DNA of 64,000 bases. Source: a bacterium. GTDB lineage: Bacteria > Zhuqueibacterota > Zhuqueibacteria > Residuimicrobiales > Krinioviventaceae. Position numbers and translations under genes: made by a program. How positions within the stretch are numbered: position 1 is the stretch's first letter; each line of letters opens with the position of its first letter. Shown piece by piece: positions 19,035 through 57,521 of the stretch. Under the pieces are notes generated by a model. It saw only the letters and a program-made list of their open reading frames with translations, was not told the DNA's origin and ran no database searches. The DNA is taken from NCBI GenBank assembly GCA_963693055.1, contig OY843751.1, forward strand, positions 1,248,001 through 1,312,000, in the 5' to 3' direction.

Positions 19035-19230
19035 GATCGCCCGGTATATTCATGCCGGGCGGGATATATTTCAGGACATTTGTCCAAAAAAATATACCGG
19101 GATGCAGGGACCTGCATCGCGATCATTTAATTCACCACAGATGAACGCAGATTAACGCAGATAGATATTTTGTTCTCCCGCCCAAGTTTCACTTGGGTGG
19201 GAAATTTGATAGGATGCTTTACTTTCCGAT
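19035..19230. repeat. Mixed palindrome cluster: GATC-ended REP doublet, 10-nt periodic repeat and CTC-type REP
   Basis: GATCGCCCGGTATATTCATGCCGGGCG...GATGCAGGGACCTGCATCGCGATC (19035-19124); CCACAGATGAACGCAGATTAACGCAGAT (19135-19162); CTCCCGCCCAAGTTTCACTTGGGTGGGA (19175-19202). Confidence 0.8.
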
Positions 19231-52613: not shown

Positions 52614-52678
52614 GATAAAGCTCATTCCGGTTTTATAAATCACCCAGGGTGGATTATATCACCCTGGGTTTTTATGTT

Positions 52679-54584: not shown

Positions 54585-54879
54585 TTGGGGTCCTCCAAGT
54601 CAGAGTTTTTGTATCATATTTTAATCATACCCTCCTGGTTGTTTGATTTTCTGATCAGGCGGGTAATGTATATATTTTCAATGTAGACAAGTTAGTCAGA
54701 TTATTTTTAAATTACAAGTGATTTGATTGGGGGGATGTTGTCTGAATTGGGATTTTGAGGATGAATGGATTTGGGTTCAAGTTTTTTGGGAAATGGAGTA
54801 ACTGTAAATTAAATTTGGTGCAAGATGTACAATTTGATATTGGAATATGTAGGATGAAATGTTGTTATGAATATTAATC

Positions 54880-54908
54880 TTGACTTTTTAAGACCTGGGA
54901 TGTAATTT
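54880..54908 (+). promoter_or_regulatory. Sigma70-like promoter of TA module 1
   Basis: TTGACT-N17-TAATTT. Confidence 0.5.
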
Positions 54909-54965
54909 AAAATGAGATGCAATTTTTAACGGTAAGGAGAGATATTCAAAATCCAAACGATTTCA

Positions 54966-55217
54966 ATGTTTTTTGGTATTATTGTTCGTATGTATTGCGC
55001 ACCTGGAGAACATAATCCGCCCCATTTTCATGCGTATTATCAGGATTATAAAGTCGTTGTCGATATAAATCATTGTGAGATTACTGACGGAGATTTTCCA
55101 CCCAAACAAGCAAAGCTGGTTGTAGCCTGGGCAGAATTGCGTAAAGAGGAATTCCTAGCGGATTGGGAATTGGCATCAAAGGGTGAATTGCCTTTCAAGA
55201 TTGATCCTTTAAAGTGA
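54966..55217 (+). CDS. DUF4160-family TA component (possibly degenerate)
   Basis: 'MFFGIIVRMY...EHNPPHFHAYY...LVVAWAEL...W...PFKIDPLK'; the expected MPTIS start reads ATC CAA ACG ATT TCA at 54951. Confidence 0.85.
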   Translation: MFFGIIVRMYCAPGEHNPPHFHAYYQDYKVVVDINHCEITDGDFPPKQAKLVVAWAELRKEEFLADWELASKGELPFKIDPLK

Positions 55218-55231
55218 TATTTGAGGTTTTT

Positions 55232-55477
55232 ATGTATTTGTCCGTTGTTAAAGTTAAACCATTAAAAGATTTCAAGCTGCTATTAACATTCGAAAATGAT
55301 GAGAATCGCATTTTTGATGTATCTCCCTATCTGGAGATTGGCAGGTATGCCGAATTAAAAAATGTATCTTTGTTTAATTCTGTAAGGAAAAGTTTTGATT
55401 CAATCCAATGGCCCAATGAACTTGATTTTGATCCTGAATTTTTATATGAGAAAAGTGAGTTAGTAGAGGATGTCTAG
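55232..55477 (+). CDS. DUF2442-family TA partner
   Basis: 'VKPLKDFKLLLTFENDE.RIFDV..L', 'IQWPNELDFDPEFLY'; start ATG 55232 after GAGG. Confidence 0.88.
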   Translation: MYLSVVKVKPLKDFKLLLTFENDENRIFDVSPYLEIGRYAELKNVSLFNSVRKSFDSIQWPNELDFDPEFLYEKSELVEDV

Positions 55478-55600
55478 TATAGAGGTTTCAAGATTTATTG
55501 AATTTATAGATTGCAAGTTTGAATTTGATGGTTATTTGTTCCTAATCCCGAAAATCTTTAAATCCTTTCATCATAATTCTGACGGTGAAGGTTTGTGATA

Positions 55601-55697
55601 GTAGATCACATTTTAATTACTCACCACAAGGTGAGCTATGAGACCGCTTTCAGCGGACAAACGAAATGAATTTCGTTCTACAGGGGATTGTATGAAT
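55601..55697. repeat. Composite repeat copy 1 (GTAG...CTAC REP-like element plus start of hairpin arm)
   Basis: GTAGATCACA...CCGCTTTCAGCGGACAAACGAAATGAATTTCGTTCTACAGGGGATTGTATGAAT. Confidence 0.9.
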
Positions 55698-55721
55698 TTG
55701 ATAGATAGGATTTTAATAATC

Positions 55722-55750
55722 TTGACTTTTTAATGACAAGAAAGTACCTT
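55722..55750 (+). promoter_or_regulatory. Sigma70-like promoter of hicAB
   Basis: TTGACT-N17-TACCTT; 17-mer TAATCTTGACTTTTTAA is identical to 54875-54891. Confidence 0.5.
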
Positions 55751-55812
55751 ATATAAATTATGTCTGTTGGAAAGCCGTTGTTTGAGATTTATTAAATCTA
55801 TCGAAGGACTAT

Positions 55813-56070
55813 ATGGGCAAATACGAAAAACTGTATATTCAAATTATGACGAGAATGTCAGATGCGAATATTCCGTTTGATTCGATGGTTATATTATTAA
55901 AGAAACTTGGTTTCAAAGAACGTATTAAAGGGGATCACCACATTTTAACCATGGATGGTGTAGAAGAGATAATCAACCTGCAGGCAAAGGAAGGAAAAGC
56001 AAAGCCTTATCAGGTTAAGCAGGTGCGCGAAGTGATTCTGCGATATAATCTCAAATTAGGAGTAAAATGA
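55813..56070 (+). CDS. hicA: HicA-family toxin
   Basis: 'ANIPF..LLKKLGF.ERIKGDHH...INLQ...KAKPYQVKQVR'. Confidence 0.9.
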   Translation: MGKYEKLYIQIMTRMSDANIPFDSMVILLKKLGFKERIKGDHHILTMDGVEEIINLQAKEGKAKPYQVKQVREVILRYNLKLGVK

Positions 56071-56282
56071 TGGTTTCAAAATATGAAATAATAATTTATT
56101 GGAGCGATGAAGACAGCGCATATATAGCGGAAGTGCCTGAATTGTCGGGTTGTATGGCGGATGGCGCTACATATCAGGAAGCACTGGCAAATGTGGAACA
56201 GATCATTCAAGAGTGGATTGATACCGCAAAAGAACTGGGACGAGAAATTCCAACACCAAGGGGAAGATTGGCATACGCATAA
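56067..56282 (+). CDS. hicB: HicB-family antitoxin (short, no HTH)
   Basis: 'YEIIIYWSDED.AYIAEVPELSGCMADGATYQEAL...GREIPTP'; ATGA overlap with hicA. Confidence 0.92.
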   Translation: MMVSKYEIIIYWSDEDSAYIAEVPELSGCMADGATYQEALANVEQIIQEWIDTAKELGREIPTPRGRLAYA

Positions 56283-56306
56283 GCCGGTGCTAGCTCAATT
56301 GATTTA

Positions 56307-56622
56307 TTGTCTGTATCAGGATTTATAGGTTTCAGTGAGGCCAGGATTTGTGCTTTTTAAAACTCAGCTGCTTTCAAATAATCTTTTAAATCCCGCACAT
56401 TCTGATTCTGAAGGTGATTGTTTGTAGATCACAATTTAGTGGGATTTACCGCCGCAAAACGGGCTAAGAGTCCGCTTTCAGCAGACAAACGAAATGAATT
56501 TCGTTCTACAGGGGATTGTCTGAATTAAGATTTTTGGGATTTATAGGATGATAAGATTAGGTTTGATGCTTGCTGTTACCCAATCCCATAAATCGTTAAT
56601 CCTTTTATCCTAATTTAGACAG
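56307..56622. repeat. Composite repeat copy 2 (long hairpin 56307-56414, REP-like element 56424-56509, long hairpin 56516-56622)
   Basis: TTGTCTGTATCAGGATT...TCTGATTCTGAAGG; GTAGATCACA...AACGAAATGAATTTCGTTCTAC; TTGTCTGAATTAAGATT...ATCCTAATTTAGACAG. Confidence 0.9.
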
Positions 56623-56765
56623 TGAAATAAGGATTCTTGGGTAAAGTTCAAAATTGAATATCCAATTATTATCAGTTTTTAAGAAAATATCAAACAAAAA
56701 TATCTTGATTTATAATTTATTGCACTATAAATTTAAGAAAATTCATTTAATAATTGAGAATTGAA

Positions 56766-56981
56766 ATGACATTTAATGAAATAGAGCAAAAATCACTTGA
56801 ATTAACAGCAAATGATAGAATACGTCTTGTTGAAAAATTGATAGCAAGTTTGGATAAACCTGATCCAGAGATCGAGGCGGCATGGATCAAAGAATCTGAG
56901 GCTCGTTTGGCTGCGTATGAAAAAGGAGAATTGAAAACAGTACCTTTGGAAAAAGTACTTGGGGAATTGAAACGTAAATGA
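56766..56981 (+). CDS. Addiction-module antitoxin (TIGR02574/Unstab_antitox-like)
   Basis: 'LTANDRIRLVEKLIASL...IEAAWIKESEARL.AY..G'. Confidence 0.9.
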   Translation: MTFNEIEQKSLELTANDRIRLVEKLIASLDKPDPEIEAAWIKESEARLAAYEKGELKTVPLEKVLGELKRK

Positions 56982-57266
56982 AATTATTTTTTTCTGAACT
57001 TGCTCAAAACGAATTACAGGATGCAGTTACTTATTATGATGAAATTTCGTCTTTATTGGGGGATGCTTTAATAAAAGAAGTCAAACAGGCTGAAAAGTTG
57101 ATTACTGTTTTTCCTTTCGCATGGACCAGTGTTGGTAATCATCAGAGAAAATATATTTTAAAAAAGATTTCCATATATGATGATCTATAAGATTTATGGA
57201 GACCGGATCATTGTTTCTGCATTTGCTCACCAATATCGTAATCTGGAATATTTTATTGATAGATAG
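56978..57266 (+). pseudogene. RelE/ParE-family toxin with a one-base frameshift
   Basis: N-terminus 'FSELAQNELQDAVTYY'; after the A-run near 57160 the next frame reads 'RFPYMMIYKIYGDRIIVSAFAHQYRNLEYFIDR*', ending at 57266. Confidence 0.85.
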
Positions 57267-57290
57267 CAAAATACCCTGAACTGTCCGTGG

Positions 57291-57521
57291 ATAGATCACA
57301 CTTTGGGATTGCTCACCGCATGGTAGGTTATGAGCCCGCTTTCAGCGGACAAACGAAATGAATTTCGTTCTACAGTGGATTGTCTGAATCAGGATTAGCT
57401 GGATTTGAGTTTTTTTTACATTGATATGTCCTTTATTAAATCCCGATATATATAATCTTATAATCTTGTAAATCCTACGCATCCTGATTCAGACGGTAAA
57501 ATCCTGTGCCAGAGGCACAGG
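57291..57521. repeat. Composite repeat copy 3 (REP-like element 57291-57373, long hairpin 57380-57496, palindrome 57503-57521)
   Basis: ATAGATCACA...AACGAAATGAATTTCGTTCTAC; perfect 14-bp arms GTCTGAATCAGGAT/ATCCTGATTCAGAC; CCTGTGCC-AGA-GGCACAGG. Confidence 0.9.

Follow-up and report, generated by a model that had tools for sequence, protein, structure and literature searches.

The 64,000-nucleotide stretch of DNA analysed here (hereafter the window; positions 1,248,001 to 1,312,000 of contig OY843751.1, assembly GCA_963693055.1, from a bacterium of the Zhuqueibacterota) carries a series of long inverted repeats between 54738 and 57496, and these are gene-less copies of the inverted ends found on either side of one branch of the GxxExxY nuclease genes in many other bacteria. 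Each end, which we call an arm, consists of a GTCTGAA outer end, four variable bases and a row of direct GAT or GGAT words, and the simple form of the cassette is an arm, a GxxExxY gene and an inverted arm. The GGAT-arm cassette is likely a selfish DNA element for which no description was found in the literature searched; new here are the clade-specific tie of the GGAT word, a succession of decay stages at one site, the absence of target duplication and the comparison with a sister genome (G001). No gene of the GGAT-arm GxxExxY clade was found in this genome or in G001 at the searched threshold (E 1e-30), and neither tblastn nor a nucleotide profile recovered a relic of one in this genome. Since both genomes are without the clade gene, the window copies are orphans, and they look inactive.

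When metagenome genes of the clade were chosen by protein alone, an arm was present within 400 bp of 72 of 80, and an inward-facing pair at 41 of the 80, compared with an arm in 1 of 131 control flanks taken farther out from the metagenome clade genes; the 80 loci are the best of 554 confirmed, and the set is therefore close to the query. At the level of the phylum, the arm profile scored at 7 of 15 clade loci (two of these clade genes were first found via the arm) versus 0 of 32 loci of other GxxExxY clades, with most of the remaining clade loci showing related words and the other-clade loci having other periodic words. A quick tree, built without five other metagenome loci and without three rows that contained stop codons, gave the clade a Shimodaira-Hasegawa-like approximate likelihood ratio (SH-aLRT) support of 99, the end motif being present in 73 of 84 rows inside it versus 2 of 21 outside. 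The GGAT arms themselves flank a GxxExxY gene in the relatives G034 and G006. This genome has five GxxExxY genes, all with inverted periodic words of other kinds on both sides; two of the five (L002, L005) have an in-frame stop. Other word families of this genome (CACAGAT, CACGAA and CACAAAG types) gave 12-17 dispersed doublet matches each.

Among 167 genomes, the arm pattern occurred in 8 of 14 with a clade gene versus 13 of 153 without one, in a comparison where kin are not independent, and each of the five arm-bearing GTDB genomes tested had a clade gene, three of them having been picked without a known neighbour. Overall, at least 129 GTDB stretches from many phyla carry the pattern (the records include Bacteroidota, Desulfobacterota, Poribacteria, Chloroflexota and Nitrospirota), as do 21 stretches in viral contigs. 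Lone arms make up 58 of 101 GTDB and viral loci. GxxExxY was the only gene repeatedly enclosed by arms across metagenome, GTDB and viral loci, and a protein atlas search returned only GxxExxY clusters.

Simple cassettes are 454-632 bp long and have terminal inverted repeats, the GTCTGAA and TTCAGAC ends being 84-99% matched within cassettes. An initial annotation of the window, made from the sequence alone, had named identity to the ends of an insertion sequence (IS) or a MITE (a miniature transposable element with inverted repeats) with target-site duplications as the finding that would speak against its reading; a duplication of 3-9 bp was present in 0 of 32 simple cassettes, 2-bp duplications occurred in 3 versus 2.6 expected, and none was seen at the window copies. 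The ATG of a long open reading frame (ORF) stood 1-2 nt past the right end in 18 of 55 cases, and the TGA of the arm was the stop of the upstream gene in 9 of 48. Of 28 readable family-level loci, 4 have a cassette at the trpG-trpD junction, as do 6 of 21 loci from closer relatives, with the query counted in both sets; one locus had a gene-less pair. In five of the filled alleles, which probably represent one event, the joined flanks would by eye form an ordinary Lys-stop overlapping the trpD start, which suggests clean insertion; three other filled alleles do not fit this joining. The same junction is a general hot spot, where other relatives carry unrelated repeat families (7-8-nt words and CCCCT...AGGGG palindromes; L253-L282, L450-L470). 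The Bacteroidota hisG leader, where the right arm of the cassette provides the start codon of hisG, was compared across 21 loci, of which 2 were intact, 3 had a broken gene, 1 had both ends without the gene, 6 had remnants or stubs, 8 were without the cassette and 1 was truncated; the stubs are uncertain, because native hisG starts resemble the arm end. This series, from intact to broken to gene-less to stub, accounts for both the complete hairpins and the lone arms.

The cassette gene is a member of the GxxExxY family (139.9 bits, cut-off 35), and its protein models as a RecB/Cas4-type PD-(D/E)XK nuclease with intact active-site residues, a fold that by itself shows no function. The structure model had a predicted local distance difference test (pLDDT) score of 94, and a single-sequence fold model was poor (pLDDT 39). 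Foldseek placed Cas4 SSO0001 first (E 1.7e-4), followed by lambda-type exonucleases, and VIA-align (Z 7.5, root mean square deviation 3.5, 101 aligned) gave a tie with other PD-(D/E)XK proteins, below the level that singles out a relative; no solved structure of a relative was found by sequence. Residues E27, D66, E76, Q90 and Y94 are present in 84 of 84 clade rows and K78 in 83 of 84, and we take these to be the E, D, ExK and QxxxY motifs. Near-invariant within the clade and different outside it are Q26, R32, R47, E48, R63 and R64, which are candidate specificity residues. The GxxExxY or PDDEXK_3 family (TIGR04256, PF13366) has been described as of unknown function, with multiple horizontal transfers (Steczkiewicz 2012, PMC3424549), and the available part of that paper gives neither flanking repeats nor a mobility role for it. 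A mention of GxxExxY in the accessible portion of 10.1101/2021.01.26.428298 is unrelated to repeats, and no account of repeats around GxxExxY was found in the literature searched, which did not extend to subscription journals.

The arm profile was trained on 14 arms from seven hairpins of this genome alone, and the last six arms of the window (those of 56306-56414, 56516-56623 and 57379-57496) belong to this training set. The hairpin copies described in the initial annotation are in place in the sequence, the arms of these three copies scoring 20.7-35.7 bits, the arm at 54738 scoring 13.7 bits and the right arm ending at 55585 scoring 22.6 bits; the left half of 55481-55585 and the arm at 55688 had no match of at least 11 bits. 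Genome-wide, an exact 24-nt arm pattern had 24 matches versus 0 when read backwards, and 46 arms scored at least 16 bits, 14 of them within the seven hairpins and most of the others without a recognised partner; only 2 of the 46 fall within long ORFs. The periodicity of about 9 nt noted earlier stands insofar as the words recur, with 101 of 128 intervals measuring 8 or 9 nt and a single one measuring 10 nt; this spacing excludes a helical repeat, and with it the sense in which the sites had been called phased. With replichores assigned by GC skew over the whole genome, the leading strand carries 32 arms and the lagging strand 14, the copies not being independent, and the outer flank is T-rich in 24 of 46 arms versus 16% of intergenic points, a partly circular comparison of copies that again are not independent. 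Orphan arms (n=82) showed no peak at stop or start codons. A GGT(G/A)AA sequence had been offered as a general terminus; the GGT(G/A)A(A/T) tail is in fact limited to the right arms of the window locus, which suggests local duplication, and across the genome arms are most often flanked on the outside by an A run.

Of the four copies that had been called long hairpins, 56515-56624 and 57379-57498 have a fold superior to that of shuffled sequences (z -4.7 to -6.3); no such advantage was seen for 56306-56416 (z 0.1 to 0.8) or 55481-55587 (z -0.7 to 1.6). Across the seven hairpins of the genome, an arm matched its own partner at 54% versus 55% for the partner of another (p 0.69), and because there is no covariation, a conserved structured RNA is unlikely to be the nature of these repeats. 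A structured RNA or regularly bulged stem, as initially proposed, fares poorly on further counts: most arms are unpaired, the spacer columns between the words of compared hairpin arms are mostly A/A or T/T mismatches, and an Rfam scan gave only a chance CRISPR-DR50 match outside the arms (E 0.26). The other proposal, of protein-binding sites or an element end without a named family, fits with arms that are the conserved ends of a GxxExxY cassette.

The window locus has a universal stress protein gene on one side and, on the other, an orphan ORF adjoining serA; it contains three co-oriented toxin-antitoxin (TA) pairs, namely DUF4160/DUF2442, a HicA/HicB-like pair, and a TIGR02574 antitoxin with a frameshifted partner, interspersed with arms and with a separate module resembling repetitive extragenic palindromic (REP) sequences:

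54738..54772, plus strand: left arm with GTCTGAA end and GGAT words (arm profile), kept at the orthologous G001 site; homology ends at 54772
54966..55217, plus strand: DUF4160 gene, DhiT-like toxin of TA pair 1 (profile match below the NCBIfam cut-off)
55214..55477, plus strand: DUF2442 gene of TA pair 1 (profile match)
55481..55543, plus strand: decayed left half of a former hairpin (sequence; unscored by the arm profile)
55544..55585, minus strand: right arm, facing the 54738 arm across TA pair 1 (arm profile)
55601..55681, no strand: GTAG-tagged REP-like module, copy 1, of a separate repeat family (sequence)
55688..55713, plus strand: weak, decayed left arm (sequence; no match of at least 11 bits)
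55813..56070, plus strand: HicA-like toxin of TA pair 2 (below the Pfam cut-off)
56067..56282, plus strand: HicB-like antitoxin of TA pair 2 (profile match)
56306..56414, no strand: gene-less two-arm copy, drifted (arm profile; no better fold than shuffles)
56424..56509, no strand: GTAG-tagged REP-like module, copy 2 (sequence)
56516..56623, no strand: gene-less two-arm copy, hairpin z about -5 (arm profile, folding); in G001 a single copy of this kind follows a single REP-like module
56754..56981, plus strand: TIGR02574 addiction-module antitoxin of TA pair 3 (profile match)
56978..57266, plus strand: frameshifted probable toxin of TA pair 3, break near 57160 (no profile match)
57291..57373, no strand: GTAG-tagged REP-like module, copy 3 (sequence)
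57379..57496, no strand: gene-less two-arm copy, best preserved (arm profile; z -5.4 to -6.3)
57503..57521, no strand: short unrelated palindrome (sequence); a related stretch follows the hairpin in G001
19135..19162, plus strand: lone arm with periodic words of another family (CAGAT type), similar to what flanks another GxxExxY gene (sequence)

The last of these had been described as a 10-nt periodic analogue; it is indeed present, and its words are similar to those that surround one of the GxxExxY genes in this genome (L002). The GTAG-tagged REP-like module (83-86 bp), which the initial annotation overlooked, stands ahead of three window arms. The genome contains 22 copies of the right hairpin of this module, and 10 of them have an arm within 300 bp, in mixed repeat clusters. 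The product of 56978-57266 is presumably a toxin of the RelE/ParE type; its frameshift sits in an A run, where sample contigs show no indel. Lone arms had been placed just before TA promoters, and a consensus scan for promoters and terminators was at chance level (11 promoter sites versus 13 expected); yet a 20-nt stretch upstream of the two unrelated TA pairs 1 and 2 (54872-54891 and 55714-55733) is 95% identical. Each TA pair is flanked by inward-facing arms, in the position that the nuclease gene holds elsewhere, which may be chance, because arms alternate densely in the window. The association of TA genes with arms is local to the window and not general: by eye, no arm elsewhere in this genome or its sister stands beside an obvious TA gene, a scan that took in 130 of 162 small ORFs found a TA-type neighbour at 4 of 80 GTDB arm loci, and arms were found at 0 of 6 loci of HicAB homologues in distant genomes.

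In G001, where the flanks of the locus are 93-94% identical, the 54738 arm is directly followed by a single REP-like module and a single hairpin, with none of the three TA pairs present, and a different orphan gene comes after; a DNA search found TA pairs 1 and 2 nowhere in G001. Synteny breaks inside the 54738 arm, where a short stretch resembles the end of the arm at 55585. Across the genome, synteny was intact at 4 of 51 G001 arms versus 15 of 27 control intergenic points. The three TA pairs, which were horizontally acquired, were likely gained (or lost from G001) at units of arm and REP-like module by host recombination; two genomes do not fix the direction, and gain in this genome is likelier because the TA genes are foreign to the family. 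At 52614-52677 of the window, G001 carries a 2.1 kb stretch that is missing from this genome (L206).

On balance, we think it probable that the repeats are the left-over ends of a cassette whose nuclease likely recognises the GGAT words and cuts at the outer end, with host repair carrying out the insertion. According to this scheme, the nuclease would bind the row of words with one protein unit per 8-9-nt word and would likely cut at the outer GTCTGAA end, after which the repair machinery of the host would join the cassette into gene junctions, leaving no target duplication. The gene would then decay, leaving arm pairs and single arms that could persist, duplicate passively and seed recombination, and the window arms would by now be passive, forming with the REP-like module a repeated unit for host recombination. 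More tentatively, and at odds that we judge to be somewhat unfavourable, GxxExxY proteins in general may be mobilising enzymes of widespread selfish DNA, each clade with its own arrays of 8-10-nt words, with clean junction insertion and with foreign cargo, such as the window TA pairs standing in the place of the nuclease.

Several observations weigh against the nuclease-driven cassette. A GxxExxY gene was within the fetched flank at 3 of 129 GTDB arm loci (49 of which had a flank of about 300 bp only), 13 of 21 arm-bearing genomes were without a clade gene at E 1e-30, and the two arm-richest genomes of the phylum (27 and 32 matches; this genome and G001) are among those lacking it. Restriction-modification (RM) genes make up 34 of the 59 neighbours scanned (of 69), at varied junctions, which also fits a role in defence. 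The cut position is uncertain by 1-3 nt, because no near-identical empty site was found, and no excision junction was seen in the contigs of one sample, which agree with the assembly and are assembled contigs only. To our knowledge, a 125-residue nuclease has no obvious strand-joining activity. Synteny breaks coincide with other repeat families as well. Furthermore, some arms of this genome are duplicated within rhs-like (labelled by eye) or paralogue units, and in Desulfamplus a hairpin has by eye spread as the passenger of an ordinary MITE with 6-bp duplications, so that copy number need not reflect the nuclease.

The lack of target duplication in cassettes would also suit a free-standing homing endonuclease that cuts the empty sister junction and is copied in by gene conversion, with the arms acting as operators or protecting the occupied allele. 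Homing endonucleases of the PD-(D/E)XK type exist, and the trpG-trpD and hisG junctions, filled in scattered relatives, present a decay series like a homing cycle. However, proteins that are 80-90% identical occupy many different junctions, and homing leaves unexplained both the dozens of gene-less copies at unrelated sites and the clade-specific words on both sides, for which reasons we regard it as unlikely. Quite unlikely, in our view, is that the arms act on RNA, the paired ends looping the gene out of an operon mRNA, damping translation of a toxic nuclease and coupling its neighbours, with movement achieved by other means. Cassette ends do adjoin stop and start codons, the folds of two window copies reach a z of about -5 to -6, and in 33 cassettes an arm matched its own partner at 70% versus 58% for that of another, a difference inflated by subtype kinship; but spacer columns pair in only 30-57%, with mismatches mostly A/A and T/T, the seven genome hairpins show no partner preference (p 0.69), and lone arms predominate at GTDB and viral loci (58 of 101), orphan arms being without a codon peak.

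The neighbourhood of RM genes (34 of 59) invites a reading in which GxxExxY is an accessory defence nuclease of RM loci and the arms are autoregulatory operators that spread as passengers of MITEs, duplications and horizontal transfer. Passenger spread is seen in Desulfamplus and in the duplicated units of this genome, and the arm-richest genomes are without the nuclease gene. The neighbours are nevertheless drawn with a bias from relatives of a query that is itself embedded among RM genes, cassettes are found in trp and his operons as well, and an operator would be unexpected downstream, inverted and with a fixed outer end; we consider the defence role improbable, slightly more so than looping of the RNA. 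Finally, chromosomal integrons with TA cassettes consist of small TA pairs separated by hairpin repeats, and the window, with three small TA pairs in one orientation, spaced by about 830-860 bp and absent from G001, has the look of such an array, in which the hairpins would be attC-like sites. Unlike in an integron, there is no integrase above the cut-off in the complete genome (best TIGR02249 score 80.9 versus 265), the attC pattern RYYYAAC ... GTTRRRY occurs 0 times in the four spacers on both strands, and arms were at 0 of 6 HicAB homologue loci elsewhere; this reading is largely refuted, and we give it very little credence.

The arm element works like REP sequences and their REP-associated tyrosine transposases (RAYTs), but it fails the defining tests of REP/RAYT systems, MITEs and integrons. 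As described in the consulted part of Bertels and Rainey 2011 (PMC3116915), the likeness to REP sequences, their hairpin-forming doublets (REPINs) and RAYTs lies in a gene that has its own type of repeat on either side, numerous inverted doublets without a gene, decayed singlets and tandem clusters, and in a repeat type that follows the protein clade. RAYT is a HUH tyrosine transposase, whereas the partner of the GGAT arm is a RecB/Cas4-type PD-(D/E)XK nuclease; REP is a GTAG/CGTC-tagged self-folding palindrome, whereas the GGAT arm is a row of direct 8-9-nt words; and lone arms outnumber doublets here, unlike in REP/REPIN. A RAYT was considered as the partner of the arms and rejected: both Y1 genes of this genome (L006, L007) are flanked by other palindromes. 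IS-derived MITEs, in the sections of Delihas 2011 (PMC3184786) available to us, are similarly non-coding, shorter than 200 bp, with foldable inverted ends, and arise by internal deletion of a gene-bearing element; the GGAT-arm element differs in that 0 of 32 cassettes have a target duplication and its core is not conserved, and no DDE transposase with arm ends was found, IS libraries not having been searched directly. The mycobacterial interspersed repetitive units (MIRUs) covered there are likewise placed in operons, with ends overlapping neighbouring genes, but have 4-nt direct repeats at filled sites, no cognate nuclease gene and no periodic words (PMC3184786). The GGGAATC heptamers of Xanthomonas and Nostoc are also word arrays between co-oriented genes, preferably of about four units; they have a period of 7 and form G-quadruplexes, and a fixed terminal motif or partner gene is not reported in the part of the article consulted (Rehm 2015, PMC4692102).

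A large family of unknown function thus gains a candidate DNA substrate and a clade-by-clade code, of which binding and cutting are testable at once. Should the nuclease move the cassette, this would be a REP/RAYT-like system with an enzyme of unrelated type, as well as a small (about 125 aa) tool for scarless insertion or cutting. The cassette would also explain a common unannotated intergenic repeat across phyla and hot spots of accessory-gene turnover.

Several further repeat arrangements were observed. Desulfamplus magnetovallimortis (L049-L125) has about 28 copies of its MITE of about 170-180 bp, which has CTCAAAATCGACA ends, 6-bp duplications and the GGAT hairpin inside. Head-to-tail arrays of two-arm units with an 88-93 bp period occur in L032, L039 and L045, which are G013 contig ends, and one of single arms with a 44 bp period in L106; head-to-tail arm arrays are without unique spacers and might be misread as CRISPR arrays. 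A tyrosine recombinase fragment near arrays at 2.23 Mb of the genome was considered and set aside, the arrays being duplications of rhs-like toxin/immunity genes that carry one arm passively. In the rhs-like C-terminal toxin/immunity arrays (L008, 7300-12000; L009, 4500-13800), each unit comprises one arm, a REP-like copy and a hairpin resembling a terminator, and related units occupy other sites in G001 (L223, L227, L232). Just past another arm, a defence-like cluster carries TIR, patatin/SLOG and ThsB-like genes (L015, 2644-5823).

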